This document shows positions 896 to 54,749 of a stretch of DNA of 64,000 nucleotides, piece by piece. The notes below the pieces were generated by a model. That model was not told where the DNA came from, searched no databases, and saw only the letters and a list, made by a program, of their open reading frames with translations. The first letter of the stretch is position 1, and each line of letters begins with the position of its first letter. A program made the position numbers and the translations under genes. This DNA is from a virus (lineage: Duplodnaviria; Caudoviricetes), in the IMG/VR virus record IMGVR_UViG_3300010052_000154, positions 1-64,000 of that record; one strand, given 5' to 3'.

Positions 896-914
896 GGCGC
901 CTCTCCGAAGACGT

Positions 915-929
915 GAACGAAAATGGAAC
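915..929 (-). promoter_or_regulatory. Alphaproteobacterial LexA (SOS) box
   Basis: GAAC-GAAAATG-GAAC is an exact GAAC-N7-GAAC match, upstream of the 509-895 gene. Confidence 0.55.
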
Positions 930-1034
930 ATCGCGCATCGTGAGGAACGAGTCGAGTCTGGCCCGTGGAGAAGCGGACCAGTCGCCAGCGAGCGGCTCGC
1001 GAATCAAATCGCGCCGCGGCTATGACCTCGCCCC

Positions 1035-1337
1035 ATGAAGCAGCACACCGGCGAGGAAATTCGAGCGATCATGGCGGACATGCCGGCCGAGGCCATCGAG
1101 CGCCTGAAGGCTGAGTACGCCGAGCATCAGATCACCGAGCATGAGGCCCGCTGGTGGGGCTACCTGATGTTTGCGCGGACGGGCGCCTACGAAGGAACCG
1201 CGTACGCGATCCCAGTCATGGGCGGCGGAGAGGTCCGTCAGGAGTTTCTCAGCTATGTGCTGGACGACCGCGAGGGAAACCGACGCCACGGGCTCATTCG
1301 CAAGCCGTGGCCGGAGAGCGGCTTCGACCGGAGATAA
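1035..1337 (+). CDS. Hypothetical protein
   Basis: 100 aa ORF, typical codon usage, fills the gap before the ncRNA array. Confidence 0.6.
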   Translation: MKQHTGEEIRAIMADMPAEAIERLKAEYAEHQITEHEARWWGYLMFARTGAYEGTAYAIPVMGGGEVRQEFLSYVLDDREGNRRHGLIRKPWPESGFDRR

Positions 1338-1356
1338 TGGCCACAATTTTTCAAAC

Positions 1357-1396
1357 CGCGCAGGATGCACGCTTTACAACCCGTGCAATCTGCGCG
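1357..1396 (+). promoter_or_regulatory. Inverted repeat / paired operator-like sites over the putative promoter of the Y-RNA-rsr operon
   Basis: CGCGCAGGATGCACG (1357-1371) and CGTGCAATCTGCGCG (1382-1396) flank TTTACA (1373-1378). The first RNA unit starts at 1406. Confidence 0.45.
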
Positions 1397-1405
1397 ATTG
1401 AAGCA

Positions 1406-1471
1406 GCGTCCGTGGTGAAGGACGGGGTTACTTCTTCTGGTGAAAGACCCCATCCGCCTGTTCCCGGACGC
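1406..1471 (+). ncRNA. Y-RNA-like unit 1 (short, no tRNA domain)
   Basis: Terminal stem GCGTCCG/CGGACGC, TGGTGAAG motif, inner stem GGACGGGGT/ACCCCATCC, TTACTTC and GCCTGTTCC motifs. Lies upstream of a TROVE gene. Confidence 0.7.
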
Positions 1472-1478
1472 GCAATTC

Positions 1479-1556
1479 TGTGGGTGGTGAAGGCGTCGGT
1501 TACTTCTTTGCATAGAAGGGCTTCGGCCCATTTCCGATGCCGCCTGTTCCCCCACG
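1479..1556 (+). ncRNA. Y-RNA-like unit 2
   Basis: Terminal stem GTGGG/CCCAC, TGGTGAAG, inner stem GGCGTCGG/CCGATGCC, TTACTTC, GCCTGTTCC, internal GGGC-TTCG-GCCC hairpin. Confidence 0.7.
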
Positions 1557-1563
1557 CTGATTT

Positions 1564-1697
1564 GCGGGTGGTGTAGAGGACGGTTACTTCGCTTTGGGAG
1601 CCGTAGGTCGCGGGTTCAAATCCCGCCGTCGAGCGCAAGCCCGATGTAGCTCAGTCTGGTAGAGCAACGACCGTTCCGTCCTCGCCTGTTCCCCCGC
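1564..1697 (+). ncRNA. yrlA: YrlA-like Y RNA with circularly permuted tRNA-Pro-like domain (unit 3)
   Basis: Same scaffold (GCGGG/CCCGC, TGGTGTAG, GAGGACGG/CCGTCCTC, TTACTTC, GCCTGTTCC). It encloses a T arm (1610-1626), an acceptor stem closed by a GCAA tetraloop (1627-1646) and a D arm (1649-1665), in T-acceptor-D order. Confidence 0.85.
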
Positions 1698-1742
1698 GCC
1701 TCGGGTTTTGCACGTCCGGTCGTCCGATAGAGGAGACCGAAA

Positions 1743-3056
1743 ATGCGCATCAACACCGCCCCGGCCCGCACGCCGGTTTTCACCCATCAAGGCTCCGCCG
1801 CCGCCCGCATGACCGCTGAGCAGGCGCTGCGCCGCTCGGTCCTCTCCTGCCTTCTGTGGGAGCGCGAGTTCTATGAGGACGGCCAGGCCATCGCGGAGCG
1901 CATCGAGGCGCTGGCCGACGAGGTCGACGCCCAGGTCCTCGCTGATCTGGCGGTGGAGGCGCGCTCTCAATTCCATCTGCGGCACGTGCCGTTGCTCCTG
2001 ACGCTGGCGCTGGCGAAGCGCGGCGGGCCGATTGTTGGCGACACCGTCGAGCGCGTTATCCAACGCGCCGACGAGTTGACCGAGCTGCTCGCGATCTACT
2101 GGCGTGGCGGCAAGCGCCCGGTTTCGAAGCAGCTCAAACTCGGCCTGGCCCGTGCCCTCCGCAAGTTCGACGCCTATCAACTCGCCAAGTACGACCGGGC
2201 CAACGCGGTGCGGCTGCGCGACGTCATGTTCCTGACCCATGCCAAGCCCAAGGACGACGCTCAGGCGGCGATCTGGGCCAAGCTCGCGGACGGCGAACTG
2301 GAAAGCCCCGACACCTGGGAGGTCGCGCTCTCGGGCGGCGCCGACAAGAAGGAGACGTTCGAGCGCCTGATCCGCGAGGGAAACCTCGGCTATCTGGCGC
2401 TTCTGCGGAACCTGCGGAACATGGCCACGGCCGGCTGCGATCCCGATCTCGTGCGCGACGCGATCGTCGCGCGCCGCAACGGCGCCGAGCGGGTTCTCCC
2501 GTTCCGCTTCGTAGCGGCTGCGCGCGCGGCGCCGCAGTTCGAGCCGGCGATCGACCAGGCGCTCTCCGAGGCGATCTCGGCGCTCCCGGTCCTGCCGGGC
2601 AAGACCGCTGTGCTGGTCGACGTCTCGGGCTCGATGGATGTCCAGCTCTCGCAACGGTCCGACCTCAAGCGGATCGACGCGGCCGCGGCGCTCGCTTCGG
2701 TGATCCATGGCGACCTGCGTGTCTTCTCGTTCTCGAACTCGATCGTCGAGGTCCCGCCGCGCCGGGGCATGGCCGGCGTCGATGCCGTGATCAAGTCGCA
2801 GCCGCACGGCGGTACCTACCTCGGCCAGGCTGTGGAGAAGATCAACGCCAGCGTGCCGTATGACCGCCTGATCGTGATCACGGACGAGCAGTCCGCAGAT
2901 GCGGTCCCGGCCCCGAAGGGCTTGGGCTACATGATCAACGTCGCCTCGGCCAAGAACGGCGTCGGCTATGGGCCCTGGGTCCATATCGACGGCTTCTCTG
3001 AGGCGGTGCTGCGCTTCATCGGCGAGCACGAGCGGGCCACAAACCAACTGGCCTAG
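1743..3056 (+). CDS. rsr: Ro60-related TROVE-domain RNA-binding protein with C-terminal vWA domain
   Basis: TROVE motifs (LRHVPLLL, FDAYQLAKY, TWEVALS, ALLRNLRNM) and vWA/MIDAS motifs (VLVDVSGSM, LIVITDEQS). RBS GAGGAG. Confidence 0.95.
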   Translation: MRINTAPARTPVFTHQGSAAARMTAEQALRRSVLSCLLWEREFYEDGQAIAERIEALADEVDAQVLADLAVEARSQFHLRHVPLLLTLALAKRGGPIVGDTVERVIQRADELTELLAIYWRGGKRPVSKQLKLGLARALRKFDAYQLAKYDRANAVRLRDVMFLTHAKPKDDAQAAIWAKLADGELESPDTWEVALSGGADKKETFERLIREGNLGYLALLRNLRNMATAGCDPDLVRDAIVARRNGAERVLPFRFVAAARAAPQFEPAIDQALSEAISALPVLPGKTAVLVDVSGSMDVQLSQRSDLKRIDAAAALASVIHGDLRVFSFSNSIVEVPPRRGMAGVDAVIKSQPHGGTYLGQAVEKINASVPYDRLIVITDEQSADAVPAPKGLGYMINVASAKNGVGYGPWVHIDGFSEAVLRFIGEHERATNQLA

Positions 3057-3065
3057 GAGGCCGAC

Positions 3066-4292
3066 ATGCAAGTTTTCGAAGGAAAGCGCGGCGGCCTCAT
3101 CAAGGCTTGGATCGATGGTGTCCAAGTCGAAGAGCAGGCCCGAAACCAGCTCGACAACATGGCGGCGATGCCGTTCATCCACAAACACGTCGCGGTCATG
3201 CCCGACGTGCATTGGGGGATGGGGGCAACGGTCGGCTCGGTGATCCCCACCCGCGGCGCGATCATTCCGGCGGCCGTGGGCGTGGACATCGGATGCGGCA
3301 TGTCGGCCCAACGCACCACGCTGACGGCCGCCGACCTGCCTGACAATCTGTTCGGCCTCCGCACGGAAATTGAAAAGCGGATCCCGCATGGCCGAACCGA
3401 CAACGGTGGCCCGGGCGACCGCGGCGCGTGGGGCGATGTCCCGCCGAGCCATGCCGCCGAGTTCGCACGCCTGTCCGCCGGCTTGGCGGAAATCGTCGCC
3501 AAGCACCCGAAGTTGGGCCAGCAGGCTGCGCGCGCGCAACATCACCTCGGCACGCTGGGGACGGGCAACCACTTCGTCGAGGTATGCCTGGACGAGGATG
3601 ATCGCGTCTGGATCATGCTTCACTCTGGCTCGCGAGGCATCGGAAACCGCATCGGCTCCTACTTCATCGAGAAGGCGAAGGAGGACATGCGGCGCTGGTT
3701 CATCGATCTGCCCGACCAGGACCTCGCCTACATTCCGCAGGGCTCGGAGCTCTACGGCGACTACATGAAGGCGCTCGCGTGGGCGCAGGGGTTTGCGCGC
3801 CTGAACCGAGATCTGATGATGGCGGCTGCAATTGAGGCGTTGTCCGTCTCGGTGCCGAAGCCCTTCGCTTGCGACTGCGCGGCCGTGAACTGCCACCACA
3901 ACTATGTCGCCCAGGAGCATCATTTCGGGGCCGACGTGCTGGTGACGCGGAAAGGCGCGGTGCGGATCAGCGAGACGGAACTGGGTATCATCCCCGGCTC
4001 CATGGGCGCGAGATCGTTCATCGTGCGAGCCAAACCCGGTTCGGCTCTGGCGATGGCCATGAACTCGTGCTCGCACGGCGCCGGCCGCGCGATGTCTCGC
4101 GGCGAGGCGAAGCGCCGCTTCTCGCTTGAGGACCATGCGAAGGCCATGCAGGGGGTAGAGGCCCGGCTCGACGCCGACGTGATCGACGAAACGCCGGCGG
4201 CCTACAAGGACATCGACGCCGTCATGGCGGCGCAGGCCGACCACGTCGATATCGTCCACACGCTGAAGCAAGTCGTCTGCGTGAAGGGCTGA
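3066..4292 (+). CDS. rtcB: RtcB RNA 2',3'-cyclic/3'-phosphate-5'-OH ligase
   Basis: Motifs MPDVHWG, VGVDIGCGM, GTLGTGNHF, HSGSRG, CHHNY, SCSHGAGR. Confidence 0.97.
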   Translation: MQVFEGKRGGLIKAWIDGVQVEEQARNQLDNMAAMPFIHKHVAVMPDVHWGMGATVGSVIPTRGAIIPAAVGVDIGCGMSAQRTTLTAADLPDNLFGLRTEIEKRIPHGRTDNGGPGDRGAWGDVPPSHAAEFARLSAGLAEIVAKHPKLGQQAARAQHHLGTLGTGNHFVEVCLDEDDRVWIMLHSGSRGIGNRIGSYFIEKAKEDMRRWFIDLPDQDLAYIPQGSELYGDYMKALAWAQGFARLNRDLMMAAAIEALSVSVPKPFACDCAAVNCHHNYVAQEHHFGADVLVTRKGAVRISETELGIIPGSMGARSFIVRAKPGSALAMAMNSCSHGAGRAMSRGEAKRRFSLEDHAKAMQGVEARLDADVIDETPAAYKDIDAVMAAQADHVDIVHTLKQVVCVKG

Positions 4293-4924
4293 TGACCGGC
4301 GAGGAGCTGAAACTCGCCTTGGTCGCTCTCTTCGGCGGCCACGGCTGGCAGACCCGGGCGGCACAGGCCCTCGGGACGGACACCAGCTCCATCCGGCGCT
4401 GGACCAGCGGACAGATCCCTGTCCCTGGCCCAGTTGCCGCGGCGGTGGCCTGGCGGGGCGAACTGGAAGCGAGGAAGAGCGCCGTGTTCTCGGAAGTGAT
4501 CTTCGACATGGACGGCACGCTGGCCGACGTCGAGCACCGACGCCCCTTCGTCACCGGCCCCGAGCCAAACTGGCCGGCGTGGAATGACCGCATGGGTGAT
4601 GATCCGCCAAACGCCCCTATCGTCGCCCTCGCCCGCATGTTCCACGACGCCGGCGCCAAGATCATCGTCAGCACCGGCCGGGACGAGCGATTTCGACGCC
4701 TGACCGAGACGTGGCTGATGTTCCACGAGGTGCCGGTCCACCGCATGTACATGCGAAAGGACGGCGATTCCCGGGCCGACCACGTGATCAAGCTGGAGAT
4801 GCTCGCCGATATCCGCGCCGATGGCTTCGATCCGCGCCTTGTGGTCGATGATCGAACTAGCGTCGTGGAGATGTGGCGCGCCGCAGGGCTGACCTGCCTG
4901 CAATGCGCTCCGGGAGATTTCTGA
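4292..4924 (+). CDS. XRE-like HTH fused to a HAD phosphatase resembling the 3'-phosphatase domain of phage polynucleotide kinase
   Basis: N-terminal HTH (TRAAQALGTDTSSIRRWTSG). HAD motif I DMDGTLAD, STGRDE, VDDRTSVVEMWRAAGLTCLQ. Confidence 0.85.
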   Translation: MTGEELKLALVALFGGHGWQTRAAQALGTDTSSIRRWTSGQIPVPGPVAAAVAWRGELEARKSAVFSEVIFDMDGTLADVEHRRPFVTGPEPNWPAWNDRMGDDPPNAPIVALARMFHDAGAKIIVSTGRDERFRRLTETWLMFHEVPVHRMYMRKDGDSRADHVIKLEMLADIRADGFDPRLVVDDRTSVVEMWRAAGLTCLQCAPGDF

Positions 4925-5913
4925 TGCGCTCGCTGGTCGAGATGAAGTTCGGCTCGCACCTCTACGGCACGGCGACGCCGGCGAGCGATCTGGACCTGAA
5001 GCTGGTTCACGTGCCCGCGCCGCGGGACATCCTGCTCCAGCGCGCGAAAGCCGTGGTCAACCAGCAGACCAAGGCGTGCGCCAACGCCAAAAACTCGGCC
5101 GACGACATCGACCGCGAGAGCTTCTCGCTGCAGAAGTTCCTCGCCTTGGTCGCGGAGGGTCAAACGGTGGCGCTCGACATGCTCTTCGCGCCAGCCTGGG
5201 CGTTCATCGGGCCGGTCGATCCGATCTGGGAGCTGATCCAGCCCAACCGCGGCCGCCTCCTGACGCGCCGCTATTCGAGCTTCGTCGGCTATTGCCGGAC
5301 CCAGGCGAACAAGTACGGAATCCGCGGCTCGCGTGTCGCTGCGGCGCGGAAGGCGTTGACCTTTCTCACAGACGCCCTGGCGCACGGCGCTCAGACCAAG
5401 CTGGCGGCGTTCGGTCGAGAGGTGACGGTGATGGCCGCCGAAACCGAGCACATGGCAGTGGTCAACATTCCATCGCAGTCCGGGACCGACGTGTTCCATT
5501 GGGAGGTCTGCGGTCGCAAGATGCCCTTCACTTCGAGCGTCAAGTCGGCCCAGGAGATCATGCAGCGGGTCGTCGACGAGTACGGCCATCGCGCCCTCGC
5601 CGCCGAGCGCAACGAAGGCGTGGACTGGAAGGCGCTCTCGCGCGCCGTCCGCATTGCGCGCCAAGCGATCGAGTTGCTCGACACTGGCGAGGTGATCTTC
5701 CCACGGCCGGACGCGGCGGACCTTCTCGCGATCAAGACCGGCGAGCGGCCCTATCAGGCGGTTGCGGACGAGATCGAGGCGCTCCTGCAGGGAGTTGAGG
5801 ATGCCGCGGCTCGGTCCGCCCTGCCCGACGCACCTGACGTCTCGTGGATGGAGGACCTCGTGGCGGCGACTTACCGAGACGAGGTACTGCGTGCGGCGAC
5901 CGACGCCGCCTGA
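4924..5913 (+). CDS. DNA polymerase beta-superfamily nucleotidyltransferase (RlaP / phage NrdC.11-like)
   Basis: GSHLYGTATPASDLD signature and C-terminal DWKALSRAVR...LLAIKTG helical domain. ATG overlaps the upstream TGA. Confidence 0.85.
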   Translation: MRSLVEMKFGSHLYGTATPASDLDLKLVHVPAPRDILLQRAKAVVNQQTKACANAKNSADDIDRESFSLQKFLALVAEGQTVALDMLFAPAWAFIGPVDPIWELIQPNRGRLLTRRYSSFVGYCRTQANKYGIRGSRVAAARKALTFLTDALAHGAQTKLAAFGREVTVMAAETEHMAVVNIPSQSGTDVFHWEVCGRKMPFTSSVKSAQEIMQRVVDEYGHRALAAERNEGVDWKALSRAVRIARQAIELLDTGEVIFPRPDAADLLAIKTGERPYQAVADEIEALLQGVEDAAARSALPDAPDVSWMEDLVAATYRDEVLRAATDAA

Positions 5914-5963
5914 ACTTGTAAGGAACGCTTACAGGTTGCGCTTCGCCGGAACGCTGCTATCTA
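5913..5963 (+). promoter_or_regulatory. Inverted repeat plus putative sigma70 promoter for the tRNA cluster
   Basis: AACTTGTAAG-N5-CTTACAGGTT (5913-5937) overlaps TTGCGC (5936-5941). TGC-TATCTA at 5955-5963. Confidence 0.4.
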
Positions 5964-6057
5964 CACGCCATGGATCGCACCCGCGCCCACTGCCGATTTA
6001 CCTGCCGAAATTCGCAGGTCACCGCCCGCTAGATCAGCGGGCGAGCTACCTGCTGTT

Positions 6058-6132
6058 GAAGGGGTAGCTCAGTGGTAGAGCGGGAGGCTGAAGACCTCCG
6101 CGTCGGCGGTTCGATCCCGTCCCCCTTCACCA
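6058..6132 (+). tRNA. tRNA-Phe(GAA)
   Basis: Full cloverleaf: acceptor GAAGGGG/CCCCTTC, loop CTGAAGA, T loop TTCGATC, encoded CCA. Confidence 0.95.
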
Positions 6133-6134
6133 AC

Positions 6135-6209
6135 GAGCCGATGGCCGAGTGGTTTAGGCGCGGGACTGCAAATCCCGTCACGCGAGTTCGATCCTCGCTC
6201 GGCTCTCCA
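6135..6209 (+). tRNA. tRNA-Cys(GCA)
   Basis: Acceptor GAGCCGA/TCGGCTC, U73, loop CTGCAAA, encoded CCA. Confidence 0.95.
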
Positions 6210-6219
6210 ACCTTTCCAC

Positions 6220-6295
6220 TGGACCGTAGCTCAGTCGGTAGAGCAGCGCCCTGTTAAGGCGACGGTCGCAGGTTCGAGCCCTGCCGGTCCAGCCA
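6220..6295 (+). tRNA. tRNA-Asn(GTT)
   Basis: Acceptor TGGACCG/CGGTCCA, G73, loop CTGTTAA, encoded CCA. G-A mismatch at the top of the anticodon stem. Confidence 0.93.
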
Positions 6296-6296
6296 A

Positions 6297-6372
6297 TGCC
6301 GGGAAGTTTAACGGGTTGAACGCCCCGCTTTGGACGGGGAAGTAGCAGGTTCGAGCCCTGCGCCGGCAGCCA
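6297..6372 (+). tRNA. tRNA-Gln(TTG)
   Basis: Acceptor TGCCGGG/GCCGGCA with a G-G mismatch at 7:66, stem CCCCG/CGGGG, loop CTTTGGA, encoded CCA. Confidence 0.88.
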
Positions 6373-6383
6373 GTTCAAACGAC

Positions 6384-6415
6384 GAAAGGCCCCGCCGGCC
6401 GGAGCCAGCGGGGCC
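6384..6415 (-). terminator. Intrinsic terminator ending the late/lysis operon
   Basis: GGCCCCGC...GCGGGGCC hairpin followed by TTTC on the minus strand, between converging units. Confidence 0.55.
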
Positions 6416-6532
6416 AGTAGGCCAGGAATCCTGGCGAACTCGATTTTCAGCGCCCGATCAGCCTATCGGCGATCCAGAGCGCGGCCGCCCCGCCGCAGGC
6501 GGCGCAGGCCATCCAGAACGTGAAGTTGTCCA

Positions 6533-6838
6533 CTAGCTGTCAGGCGGGGGGGTGGGGCACCTGAAGGGCAACTCCGCCCCATTGGTCACCGCCCAGCGGC
6601 AGAGCCGCCCCACGGCCGCCCAGCCGCGCTCGCCCCAGGCCTCAACCGCCGCATCGTGCTCTGCCAGCGCGTTGTCGCTGGTGAGGGCCTCGACGGTCAG
6701 GGCCGGCTTCGCCTCAACCTCCAGGTCCGCACTCGGCGGGTAGGCGGTCAGCCGGGGTTCCCTGCTGGCGCAACTGCACGCAAGCGCGGCGCAGGCGGCC
6801 AGGGCCAGGCTTCTGATCAGGCGCGGACTGGATAGCAC
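6533..6838 (-). CDS. Outer-membrane spanin (Rz1-like lipoprotein)
   Basis: Lipobox-like LACSC, Pro-rich, overlaps the Rz gene in another frame. Confidence 0.7.
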   Translation of the reverse strand: MLSSPRLIRSLALAACAALACSCASREPRLTAYPPSADLEVEAKPALTVEALTSDNALAEHDAAVEAWGERGWAAVGRLCRWAVTNGAELPFRCPTPPPDS

Positions 6839-7082
6839 GGGACTGCTCCTCTTCGGCGGCGGTGATGCGGTGGGTGTCTTCGGCGCGCTGGCCAGCGGCT
6901 GCGGTGTTGGCCTGGCCGACGATCTCGACGGCCGAGACGCGCGCGGCTTCGGCCCGGTCTTTCTGCAGCTGCACGCCTGAACACTGGCCGAGCATGAAGA
7001 CCGGCCCGGCGACGGCGACGGCGCCGACCAGCGCGGGCCACCAGGCGCGGGCAGCGGCGCGGGCGGCCATCCACTGGATCAT
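6714..7082 (-). CDS. Inner-membrane spanin (Rz-like)
   Basis: N-terminal TM helix, Ala-rich coiled region, C-terminal cysteines, position after the endolysin. Confidence 0.7.
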   Translation of the reverse strand: MIQWMAARAAARAWWPALVGAVAVAGPVFMLGQCSGVQLQKDRAEAARVSAVEIVGQANTAAAGQRAEDTHRITAAEEEQSRAIQSAPDQKPGPGRLRRACVQLRQQGTPADRLPAECGPGG

Positions 7083-7453
7083 GACGCCACTCCCTCAGGC
7101 CAATCGGGAAGATCGACGGTCTGTCCGGCGAGGGCATGCGTGCAGTCGCTGAGGAACTGGATATGGCCGTCGGTGATGAAGGAGTGGCAGCGCGCGCACT
7201 CAAAGCCCCAGCCTTCATCGTCGGGGGGCGGCTTAGTGCACCAGCAGCCCTTCGCCGGATCATGGCCCGGCATGTAGTGGCCGCTGGTAACCAGCACCGA
7301 AGGGGTGAAAGTCGGCCGCTCCGGGTCGCCGTTGTACGCCCATCCCGCCCCGGCGCTGTCCTGGACGCGGATCAAGTGGGGCTCGCTGCAACCTGGGCAG
7401 TGGAACATGATCCGGCCGCCCTCGACCGAGCGCAGCTTCGACGAGAGCATCAT
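7079..7453 (-). CDS. Cys/His-rich conserved phage protein (DUF6527-like)
   Basis: FHCPGC...WAYNGD..RPTFTPSVL...CHSFITDG.IQFLSDCTH pattern. Confidence 0.7.
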   Translation of the reverse strand: MMLSSKLRSVEGGRIMFHCPGCSEPHLIRVQDSAGAGWAYNGDPERPTFTPSVLVTSGHYMPGHDPAKGCWCTKPPPDDEGWGFECARCHSFITDGHIQFLSDCTHALAGQTVDLPDWPEGVAS

Positions 7454-7535: not shown

Positions 7536-8237
7536 TCAGCGCCAGCCGCCAGCCTGCAGGGCGGCCTGGAAGGTCACGGCGTAGCCGGCGATCAGCGCGG
7601 CCTTGTCCGTTCCGTTGACGATCCTGCGGGCGTTCTCGAACTGCTTGGCGTCCGCCACCTCGGGCAGATAGGTCCGAAGGCCCTTGCCGGTGAACCAGCC
7701 CTCGCGCATTCCGCGCACGATGATGCGCGCGGAAATCGCCGGCTCGAGCGCGAGGTCGTAGTTGGCGATCAGCCGGCCGCTGAGCTCGAGCTCGCGGTCG
7801 GCGCGCTCGTAGTTCTGGTCCCAGGTCAACTGGACGTCGCCGCGGCCGTAGGCAATCTGGCCGCCGTTCCGGCCGGGCTTGCCATAGGACCGCCCTGCCC
7901 CCTTCCCGTACTCGCGGACCGGTCGCAGCGTGCCGGCGGTCTCGTGTACCGCCGTGGCTAGCACATAGGCGGCCCACGACGCCGAAAACCGCTCGGCGGC
8001 GCAGGCCGCCAGGATCCGGGTGCAGCCGTCGACCTCCTCCTGGGAGAGCGTCGGGCCAAGCGGCGGGCGGGCGCGGACGTAGGCGAAGAACTGCGCGGCG
8101 TCAGCGAGGCCGCGGGGAGCCGCTGGGGCCGCCTCAGCCGTAGCGGGTGCACCTTGCGGCGCTGAGCCCTCCAGCGCGCCCCGCAGGCCCGCCAGAGCAG
8201 CCTCGGCGGCAGCGAGGTAGTCGAAGGCGGCGCTCAC
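7536..8237 (-). CDS. Endolysin, glycoside hydrolase family 19-like
   Basis: ATAVHETA..L.PVREYG and YGRGDVQLTWDQNY motifs. Confidence 0.9.
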   Translation of the reverse strand: MSAAFDYLAAAEAALAGLRGALEGSAPQGAPATAEAAPAAPRGLADAAQFFAYVRARPPLGPTLSQEEVDGCTRILAACAAERFSASWAAYVLATAVHETAGTLRPVREYGKGAGRSYGKPGRNGGQIAYGRGDVQLTWDQNYERADRELELSGRLIANYDLALEPAISARIIVRGMREGWFTGKGLRTYLPEVADAKQFENARRIVNGTDKAALIAGYAVTFQAALQAGGWR

Positions 8238-53864: not shown

Positions 53865-54077
53865 TCAGGCCGCCTCGCTCGGCGCGATCCGCGCCGCAGC
53901 CGCTTCGGCCAGCTCTTCAAGCGTGGCCAGGCCAGCGTCAGCGACGGCCTTCCAGTACCTGTCGGGGATGGCGCCGCGTCGTTCCCAGAACCGAACCTGC
54001 GACTTCGGCAGGTCGACCTTCTGGGCCACCGCTTGGTAGCCGCCAGCATCCTGGATGATTTGAAGGTGCGTTCGCAT
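53865..54077 (-). CDS. cro: Cro-like repressor
   Basis: 70 aa HTH (IIQDAGG..AVAQKV...QVRFW.RRGAIP), divergent from cI. Confidence 0.85.
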   Translation of the reverse strand: MRTHLQIIQDAGGYQAVAQKVDLPKSQVRFWERRGAIPDRYWKAVADAGLATLEELAEAAAARIAPSEAA

Positions 54078-54088
54078 GACGCGCATTC

Positions 54089-54170
54089 TGTGCATTACGC
54101 ACAGTCGCGCGTCAACTCAGATTGTGCCTCACGCACAGGGGTTCGGCGCCAAAATTGTGCAATGAGCACG
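54089..54170. promoter_or_regulatory. OR region: three 15-bp operators TGTGC-N5-GCACA plus PR
   Basis: 54089-54103 and 54123-54137 are perfect, 54156-54170 has one mismatch and covers the cI start. Minus-strand TTGACG at 54110-54115. Confidence 0.8.
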
Positions 54171-54749
54171 GAAGAAGAGAAGCGCGCGCTCCAGCGCGAA
54201 CAAGGCCGCCGGCTCAAGGCAGCCCGCAAGCAACTCGGCTTGCCGTCAGCTGCTGCGGCCGCCGACCACCTGAAGGTCTCCCCCACGACCTACGCACAGC
54301 ACGAAAACGGCACCCGCGGCATCGGTCGCGCCTCGGAAGAATACGCAGCCAAGTTTGGCGTCTCGGAGGAGTGGCTACTCCGCGGCCGAAATCCGCCCAT
54401 CTGGGCCCGCCCTGATATCGATCACTCAGAAGCGGTCGAGCCTTCACCTAGTGAGCATTATCTCACCGCCTGGAGGCTGTATTCGAAGCTGTCCCCGCAG
54501 GACCTCGCAGACCGCCTAGACGCTCCGCTACAACTCGTCGAGGATTGGGAAGCTGGCCGCTCCGACATTTCGGGAAAGTGGCTGCGGCGCCTTGCAGATG
54601 TCTTCGCAACGACCCCCGGCAGCATCCTGGATGTCGATCCCGGCTCGGTCCCACCGGACCTTCTCGAAATCTGGCGCGACACAGCTGCACGACAACGCGA
54701 GGTTCGGCAGAAGATCTCGACGCTGCGCAAGACCGGTACCGATGGTTAG
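54162..54749 (+). CDS. cI: CI-like repressor with two tandem XRE HTH domains and no S24 peptidase
   Basis: RLKAARKQLG...YAQHENGTR and LTAWRLYSKLS..DLADRL...DWEAGRS. Confidence 0.85.
   Translation: MSTEEEKRALQREQGRRLKAARKQLGLPSAAAAADHLKVSPTTYAQHENGTRGIGRASEEYAAKFGVSEEWLLRGRNPPIWARPDIDHSEAVEPSPSEHYLTAWRLYSKLSPQDLADRLDAPLQLVEDWEAGRSDISGKWLRRLADVFATTPGSILDVDPGSVPPDLLEIWRDTAARQREVRQKISTLRKTGTDG

Follow-up and report, generated by a model that had tools for sequence, protein, structure and literature searches.

The DNA analysed here, referred to as the window, comprises positions 1-64,000 of the viral record IMGVR_UViG_3300010052_000154, which is 75,826 bp in full, is classed as a provirus in IMG/VR and has a CheckV completeness of 91%. 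Near the left end of the window, at 1345-6554, lies a cassette that brings together Y RNAs, Ro60, the RNA ligase RtcB, a HAD phosphatase fused to a helix-turn-helix (HTH) domain, an RlaP-type nucleotidyltransferase and tRNA genes. An initial annotation, made from the sequence alone, had placed Y-like RNAs, Ro60, RtcB, an HTH-HAD protein, a Pol-beta nucleotidyltransferase and tRNAs together on one strand; profile searches, motifs and covariation located all of them, on the plus strand, as follows.

~1403-1473, plus strand: Y RNA 1, short and YrlB-like (fold z = -2.8; short-form covariation alignment)
~1479-1556, plus strand: Y RNA 2, short, with two additional small hairpins (fold; shared scaffold motifs GGUGAAG and GCCUGUUCCC)
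~1563-1698, plus strand: Y RNA 3, YrlA-like, with a tRNA-like T-arm/D-arm module (Rfam YrlA 41.1 bits and covariation)
1743-3056, plus strand: Ro60 (Rsr) orthologue (Pfam TROVE 47.9 bits and VWA; phrog_850, 167 bits)
3066-4292, plus strand: RtcB 3'-phosphate RNA ligase (Pfam RtcB 406 bits; phrog_1075)
4292-4924, plus strand: HTH-HAD fusion protein (PF25109 124.8 bits, residues 69-210; phrog_3626, residues 1-64; weak P22_Cro match)
4924-5913, plus strand: RlaP family Pol-beta nucleotidyltransferase (PF10127 40.3 bits, cut-off 23; phrog_388, 264 bits)
6058-6132, plus strand: tRNA-Phe (GAA) (ARAGORN and Rfam, 63.9 bits; CCA encoded; G37)
6135-6209, plus strand: tRNA-Cys (GCA) (ARAGORN and Rfam, 61.9 bits)
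6220-6295, plus strand: tRNA-Asn (GUU) (ARAGORN and Rfam, 66.8 bits)
6297-6371, plus strand: atypical tRNA, probably Gln (UUG) (Rfam 40.2 bits over 6298-6368, gathering score 29; cloverleaf fold)

The catalytic and binding motifs of the four proteins are intact. Ro60 has the metal ion-dependent adhesion site (MIDAS) motif DVSGSM, aligned to PDB 9l5y; its best PDB match is 9l5y/9kop (E = 1e-25), TROVE-domain chains attributed to the phage Ro60 of PMC12135203. The RtcB gene starts 9 nt past the Ro stop codon, and its product carries the Cys and HGAGR-His motifs, with the metal-binding and GMP-His motifs conserved in comparison with PDB RtcBs. The active site of RlaP reads GS-x9-DLD with a downstream Asp. 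A PDB sequence search with RlaP returned a designed ankyrin repeat protein (DARPin) as its sole match, which was judged spurious.

The third protein combines a Cro-like HTH (residues 1-64) with a PNKP-type HAD 3'-phosphatase (residues 69-210), in which the DxDxT motif is DMDGT. No P-loop 5'-kinase domain, as found in T4-type Pnkp, was detected in it; the N-terminus is occupied by the Cro-like HTH instead. Kinase fusions occur among more distant HAD homologues, and nearly all of the best 120 homologues are HAD-only proteins of 143-151 amino acids (aa). The HTH-HAD fusion is unique among these 120. An internal GTG at 4484, preceded by a ribosome-binding site, could yield a free HAD protein.

The last three coding sequences are linked by TGATG stop/start overlaps at 4290-4294 and 4922-4926, as the initial annotation had stated, and the second overlap sets the RlaP start. 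The same annotation had noted the absence of RtcA and RtcR from the window. This holds for the whole 75.8-kb record, in which neither RtcA (PF01137) nor an RtcR-type domain (PF00158) gave a match; control genomes do match.

The three tandem Y RNAs are built on a constant scaffold with the motifs GGUG(A/U)AG, GUUACUUC and GCCUGUUCCC, and contain two stems whose sequence varies between units while the pairing is kept. None of them was found at Rfam gathering thresholds. The Rfam YrlA (RF02553) match covers the tRNA-like core of Y RNA 3 at model positions 16-93, with 41.1 bits (E = 1.5e-6) against a threshold of 69. Y RNA 3 was aligned with 10 homologues that precede Ro genes in viral contigs or bacterial genomes, and the RNAalifold consensus consists of a closing stem, a second stem and T-arm-like, variable and D-arm-like hairpins. 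Compensatory changes were observed at 19 of the 36 pairs in this long-form alignment and at 10 of 14 pairs in the short-form alignment (Y RNAs 1 and 2 with 12 homologues). Judged by this covariation, the three units are genuine Y RNAs of a divergent subfamily of Alphaproteobacteria and their phages. Arrays of this kind beside Ro have been described in over 250 bacteria and phages (PMC4201824).

Where a YrlA-type Y RNA precedes Ro, its tRNA-like core is easily mistaken for a tRNA in annotation. Such labels include a 'tRNA-Gln' in the Caulobacter phage CcrColossus (L269, 5128-5195) and a 'tRNA-Thr' in Xanthomonas phage 10KY502B; the ARAGORN 'tRNA-Ser' call at 9701-9835 of L157, a Caulobacter prophage-like region, is another YrlA-type core.

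Among the four tRNA genes anticipated by the initial annotation, three are canonical by both ARAGORN and Rfam. The fourth was not called by ARAGORN and was identified by Rfam; inspected by eye, it is a Gln-UUG tRNA with U1-A72, G73, an odd D arm and a G7-G66 mismatch. The spacers measure 2, 10 and 1 nt, and CCA is encoded in all four genes. Compared with every tRNA of five Caulobacteraceae genomes, the cassette tRNAs reach only 73-84% identity, and no comparable array was found in these genomes. The best host match of tRNA-Phe (78%) is a tRNA-Met gene, the stems of tRNA-Cys are unlike those of host tRNA-Cys, and tRNA-Asn differs from its host counterpart in the acceptor and anticodon stems. 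Codon supply is not an obvious explanation for the tRNAs. According to a rough count, Phe, Asn and Gln codons have similar frequencies in the phage and in Caulobacter genes, and Cys codons are slightly more frequent in the phage.

Two further features of the array were observed. The identical T arm of tRNA-Asn and the Gln-like tRNA suggests tandem duplication. In addition, G37 is present in the anticodon loops of tRNA-Phe (CUGAAGA, 6089-6095) and the Gln-like tRNA (CUUUGGA, 6329-6335); position 37 of bacterial tRNAs is usually A. Loop changes such as G37 are a prediction of the idea of tRNase-insensitive phage tRNAs.

Candidate control elements lie at both ends of the cassette.

1358-1370, no strand assigned: operator-like palindrome, upstream (GCGCA-GGA-TGCAC; match to GYGCA-N3-TGCRC)
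1374-1402, plus strand: promoter-like site, -35 TTTACA (1374-1379), 17-nt spacer, -10 GATTGA (1397-1402), predicted from the sequence and its relatives
1383-1395, no strand assigned: operator-like palindrome in the promoter spacer (GTGCA-ATC-TGCGC; match to GYGCA-N3-TGCRC)
5917-5940, no strand assigned: inverted repeat TGTAAG-N5-CTTACA followed by GGTTGCG, read from the sequence, 4 nt past the RlaP stop
6388-6415, no strand assigned: G+C-rich hairpin (fold of 6376-6432: -25.6 kcal/mol, z = -2.0)

The pattern GYGCA-N3-TGCRC has two matches in the 64-kb window, both within 1358-1395, with 0.9 expected per window. The second match fills the 17-nt spacer between the -35-like TTTACA and the -10-like GATTGA, a few bases before Y RNA 1, and the same pair of sites with the same geometry is present in L157. 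In relatives, the half-sites are TTGCA, GTGCA or GCGCA, altered symmetrically in both arms, and alignment around the palindrome reveals TTGACC/TTGACT ... TAATCC/TAATCT as promoter-like elements. A strict sigma-70 consensus scan of 900-6700 called no promoter. A sigma-54-like TGGCC...TTTCA at 1341-1357 was dropped, as it lacks the -12 GC and the record contains no activator.

The palindrome is associated with the HTH across related loci. A free HTH gene of 60-95 aa follows Ro in 43 of 146 Ro loci. With the palindrome scored within 700 nt upstream of Ro (background 0.036 per 700 nt) and the window counted as HTH-positive, both elements were present in 28 loci, the HTH alone in 16, the palindrome alone in 4 and neither in 98 (Fisher's test, p ~1e-14, a figure inflated by the shared ancestry of the loci). 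Predicted recognition helices of the form DR(T/S)(Q/S)(I/V)(W/S)R go with the TTGCA half-site, and those of the form D(G/T/A)S(S/T)(I/V)RR with G(T/C)GCA. Because of this co-occurrence, the palindrome is probably an operator standing in for RtcR, and the simplest reading of the HTH is that of a repressor or autoregulator of the operon in RtcR's role. A bolder version seems quite unlikely: that Cro-like HTH proteins and the 13-bp palindrome regulate Alphaproteobacterial and phage Ro/Y-RNA operons in general and that the HTH, here fused to a 3'-phosphatase, could sense damaged RNA ends and release the operator, acting as a single-protein RNA-damage switch.

At the other end, the cassette converges on the lysis genes, again as first annotated, with the endolysin at 7536-8237. 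The hairpin at 6388-6415 lies between them and, from its predicted fold, is a probable two-way terminator.

The surrounding record has the layout of a temperate phage. Its G+C content is ~68% along the whole length. The minus strand, from ~53.7 kb down to 6.5 kb, encodes replication genes, terminase, portal, capsid, tape measure, tailspike and endolysin, and the plus strand is used from 55.9 kb to an integrase-like gene. Both ends of the record coincide with gene boundaries: a minus-strand open reading frame (ORF) has its stop at base 1, and the final base closes a 386-aa ORF (record positions 74666-75826, beyond the window). The latter has a tyrosine-recombinase-like C-terminus (HGLRHT...Y) and scores 18.3 bits against Pfam Phage_integrase, below the cut-off of 27.1; judged by its motif, it is a divergent tyrosine recombinase. 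By capsid, the nearest cultured relative is the temperate Caulobacter phage DMCA (75% amino acid identity), and the closest Ro homologue is located in a Caulobacter chromosome. On these two grounds, the host is probably a member of Caulobacterales. DMCA has no comparable cassette, and a megablast search of cultured phages with the late region found nothing.

Relatives lacking the cassette bear on whether it belongs to the phage. Two metagenome contigs, L352 and L353, align to window positions 8253-6555 at 90.6% identity; after 458 nt, the alignment resumes at 1344-318 (82-83%), and in L352 alone it continues over 287-9 (88%). Consequently, the genes on either side of the cassette appear as one conserved backbone in which 1345-6554 is an indel. 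The 458-nt filler encodes a relic of the RlaP C-terminus and keeps GCTTACAGGTTGCG, a 14-nt block of the inverted repeat at 5917-5940, which indicates that the L352/L353 lineage lost the cassette. In L352 (~3170-3200), the repeat is a perfect 16-bp palindrome; it may act as another control site or mark a seam left by recombination. Two wastewater contigs, X1 and X2 (~93% identical), bridge RlaP (to 5864) to 6555, with 399 other bases replacing the tRNA array, and their right-hand breakpoint (6555) is the same as that of L352/L353. Both come from sequencing runs in which their share is small and were used solely for the bridged junctions.

The position of the cassette also recurs. The nearest HAD homologues (71-73%) sit with RlaP (64%) in three phage contigs, L266-L268, at the same position. 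L266 has an integrase, T5orf172 and two small genes ahead of HAD (72%) and RlaP (64%), and this pair converges on homologues of the tailspike (37%) and endolysin (45%) of the window; in L267 and L268, an early operon containing NinB ends in HAD-RlaP and converges on an endolysin. This layout matches the circular map of the window phage, in which an integrase-like gene and small genes are followed by the cassette and the converging lysis genes. The genes to the left of the cassette (9-1344) are near-orphans: a 128-aa protein has two relatives, and a 100-aa protein has homologues at seven loci (L230-L236), one of them beside an integrase. No cassette genes were found at these seven loci. The closest Ro (78%, L157) is located in a Caulobacter prophage-like region, beside tail-fibre-like genes.

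A search for attachment (att) repeats compared the leftmost 7 kb of the record with its rightmost 12 kb; the longest exact shared repeats were no longer than 16 nt and lay inside genes. The att sites lie outside the record; since the record ends exactly at gene boundaries, attR is not visible. The indel in L352/L353, the common slot in L266-L268 and the dissimilarity of the tRNAs to those of the host bear out the placement of the island within a temperate phage, and the comparison makes it very probable that the cassette is inside the prophage. Its slot is a variable one: in the circular genome, it is bounded on one side by the end of the lysis/tail operon and on the other by the small genes located after the integrase.

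The combination of parts was compared across ~315 loci (Ro, 75 viral and 73 genomic; RlaP, 80 viral and 9 genomic; RtcB, 80 viral). None of them contained Ro, RtcB, HAD and RlaP together within 8-10 kb, and most held a single one of the four genes. Partial sets were Ro and RtcB in several loci, Ro with RlaP and tRNAs in L096, and HAD with RlaP in L122 and L266-L268. A search of other phages for the neighbourhood, as suggested by the initial annotation, thus recovered the HAD-RlaP pair in the same slot and the full four-protein set nowhere. The nearest relative of RtcB (87%) is in a viral contig, L272, without any other cassette gene. Among cultured phages, 1,715 records have RlaP homologues and 95 have Ro homologues. 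Because the closest relatives of each part are scattered, 1345-6554 looks like three stacked modules: a Y RNA-Ro60-RtcB unit with an HTH, a HAD-RlaP pair and a four-tRNA array. The seam between the first two would lie at the HTH::HAD fusion, and units of the first type are present on Caulobacterales chromosomes as well.

The first module resembles the rsr-yrlBA-rtcBA operon of Salmonella and E. coli (PMC4201824, PMC7790460), in which Y RNAs, including the YrlA type, lie upstream of Ro60 and are followed by RtcB in one operon. In contrast to the enterobacterial operon, which is under RtcR, the cassette has no RtcA, RtcR or sigma-54 control and instead has the Cro-like HTH and a 13-bp palindromic candidate operator. 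It adds the phosphatase, RlaP and tRNAs, it is phage-borne, and its Y RNAs score under the Rfam YrlA threshold. Close in sequence are chromosomal Ro-HTH(-RtcB) loci of Caulobacterales (for example L159 in Asticcacaulis and L157 in a Caulobacter prophage), with Ro at 69-78%, RtcB at 78% and HTH at 50-64% identity, the same Y RNA scaffold and the same type of promoter palindrome. However, their HTH is a separate protein of ~75 aa encoded immediately downstream of Ro, and they have no HAD, RlaP or tRNA array. The HAD-RlaP modules of L266 and L267/L268 are similar in protein sequence (72% and 64%), in stop/start coupling and in their convergence on lysis or tail genes, but Ro, Y RNAs, RtcB and tRNAs are all missing within 10 kb of them, and the HTH domain is absent from their HAD.

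Phage kits composed of RtcB, RlaP, Ro/TROVE, phosphoesterases and tRNAs have been described (PMC7824862). Large lytic phages, from the T4 Pnkp/Rnl1 paradigm to jumbo phages, have a common parts list with the cassette, including Ro/TROVE with a tRNA-like partner RNA, and a common proposed purpose, namely to undo or bypass tRNase attack (PMC7824862). In these phages, the parts are spread over genomes of 150-300 kb, whereas the window phage is temperate and 75 kb in size; compared with T4-type kits, the cassette lacks a kinase domain and an ATP-dependent ligase. The lytic Caulobacter phage CcrColossus likewise carries Ro, RlaP and RtcB, and its Ro also converges on a lysis cassette, but the genes are dispersed (Ro at 107 kb, RlaP at 139 kb, RtcB at 168 kb), in contrast to the single 5-kb cassette found here. 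The Thermus phage phiLo has a Ro60 with Yrl1/Yrl2 (PMC12135203; PDB 9kop, 9l5y) and so resembles the cassette in pairing a phage Ro60 with two or more Y-like RNAs; the sequence similarity is remote (E = 1e-25), and the abstract of that report mentions no repair enzymes. The initial annotation had known of no description of this exact combination in a lambdoid prophage. Its novelty stands to the extent that the full set occurs in none of the ~315 loci, but was overstated, as kits with the same parts had been described (PMC7824862, CcrColossus). The concept and every part are already known; the unusual points are the packing into one compact operon within a 75-kb temperate phage and the HTH fusion.

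We propose that 1345-6554 is an accessory RNA-repair and tRNA-resupply cassette of a temperate Caulobacter-type siphovirus, which would keep translation going under tRNA attack; we give this reading a probability of about 0.6. It starts from the observed gene and RNA identities, intact motifs, phage membership and operator-HTH association, while the activities, targets and timing of expression in the following scheme are predicted. The promoter at ~1374-1402 would be held by the HTH domain on the two 13-bp palindromes, replacing RtcR/sigma-54 control. Ro60 and the Y RNAs would bind damaged or misfolded RNA and perhaps engage the host polynucleotide phosphorylase (PNPase); according to the abstract of PMC12135203, a phage Ro60 with Y RNAs binds host PNPase. 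RtcB would reseal 2',3'-cyclic-phosphate/5'-OH breaks, such as those in cut anticodon loops. The HAD phosphatase would remove 3'-phosphates, and RlaP would then add one or two nucleotides to trimmed 3' ends. Pseudomonas RlaP enzymes have been shown to add one or two nucleoside monophosphates to RNA 3'-OH ends, and RlaP improves the recovery of tRNA trimmed by one nucleotide. The four tRNAs would replace isoacceptors beyond mending, and phage tRNAs can bypass tRNA-targeting defences (PMC10264068). As a net effect, translation would be sustained when host or competitor RNases cut tRNA. Two branches are conceivable, direct sealing by RtcB and rebuilding of 3' ends by HAD and RlaP. Both the counter-defence role and this step-by-step pathway are plausible, and a repair and replacement kit for cut tRNAs is the best reading because the activities are established for relatives of RtcB, PNKP-type phosphatases and RlaP.

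Several points weigh against this interpretation. The phosphatase and RlaP make 3'-OH ends and RtcB needs a 3'-phosphate, a problem that the RlaP authors call unsolved (preprint 10.64898/2025.12.29.696909). As RtcB cannot seal 3'-OH ends, a single linear pathway is not established. We know of no tRNase defence of the host. The strength of the HTH-palindrome association is inflated by common descent, as stated above. Furthermore, the parts are not phage-specific, since similar islands are found in host chromosomal settings: Ro-HTH-RtcB lies among housekeeping genes in an Asticcacaulis chromosome (L159; RtcB 78%, Ro 69%), and in a Caulobacteraceae chromosome (L248, G291:C11, 9563-17988) Ro, HTH, an Rnl-type ligase, a HAD-phosphatase/kinase, Hen1, Pnkp and RlaP lie among metabolic genes. 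Phage membership rests on the comparison of relatives, with the att sites outside the record, and adjacency conserved among related lysogens is suggestive rather than absolute proof of it. These two chromosomal islands would suit a host Ro/RtcB operon and tRNA cluster that merely abuts the prophage, with attL between the tRNAs and the lysis genes; the borders of a provirus are predicted by software, and tRNA genes often serve as att sites. Such an arrangement is nevertheless very improbable, given that the left-hand genes are joined to the lysis genes in L352/L353 with an RlaP relic in the gap and are near-orphans, one with a homologue beside an integrase. Moreover, phage genes flank HAD-RlaP in L266-L268, no host tRNA of the five family members exceeds 84% identity to the cassette tRNAs, the array was not found in these members, and an integrase-like gene occupies the far end of the record.

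If the cassette is accepted as phage DNA, its beneficiary could still be the lysogen rather than lytic phage growth: as a lysogenic-conversion 'moron' expressed from the prophage, it would guard the cell against tRNases (colicins or contact-dependent inhibition, CDI), toxin-antitoxin RNases and stress. This is possible, though somewhat unlikely. A predicted promoter and operator of its own, a hairpin that insulates it from the late genes, an integrase-proximal cargo slot typical of morons and host homologues that serve the cell all agree with it, but the same parts are carried by strictly lytic phages such as CcrColossus and T4-like phages. A different division of labour, in which Ro60 and the Y RNAs mainly brake host PNPase or exonucleases and so shield phage transcripts, with RtcB, HAD and RlaP as independent passengers, is less likely still. 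The Thermus phage Ro60 with Y RNAs binds and attenuates host PNPase, as reported in the abstract of PMC12135203, and most viral contigs have Ro without a ligase nearby; however, Ro lies 9 nt from RtcB in one apparent transcription unit, and the Ro-RtcB linkage recurs in the clade (L159, L161, L167, L175, L186, L187, L194, L291). Finally, the tRNA genes may have no part in repair and serve codon supply or replace a host tRNA gene destroyed by integration (tRNA-dependent lysogeny). Both roles are documented for phage tRNAs (PMC10865867, PMC10264068), and the array is gained or lost independently of the protein genes, as in X1/X2. Yet the rough codon count is close to Caulobacter for Phe, Asn and Gln and only slightly higher for Cys, and four isoacceptors exceed the need of one att site, which makes this explanation improbable for the array, although one of the four may still serve tRNA-dependent lysogeny.

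Other genes of the record were noted. A 238-aa protein with two Xre-type HTH domains is encoded at 54033-54749, in a divergent region of lower G+C content between the two main operons, and is a candidate immunity repressor. Within the lysis cassette, adjoining the endolysin, a DUF6527/BubE-family protein (124 aa, 7079-7453) is conserved in L352 and L353. Near the integrase end, at record positions 68579-71004 (beyond the window), two adjacent genes have homologues a few kb from RtcB in the viral contigs L295 and L350; the linkage of this cargo pair with RtcB may be recurrent.

With all its parts in 5 kb of a temperate phage, the proposed RNA-repair and tRNA-resupply cassette offers a small, genetically tractable model of phage RNA repair, for which natural variants exist that have lost the whole cassette (L352-type) or are missing the tRNAs alone (X1/X2-type). 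It provides a candidate repressor-operator pair for Ro/Y-RNA operons without RtcR; if the reading of the HTH-phosphatase as a switch were true, one polypeptide would both sense RNA damage and control the operon. The natural trio of RtcB, phosphatase and RlaP bears on how RlaP-extended 3'-OH ends become RtcB substrates. More broadly, the cassette illustrates how phages may assemble defence-evasion kits from modules that elsewhere travel singly.

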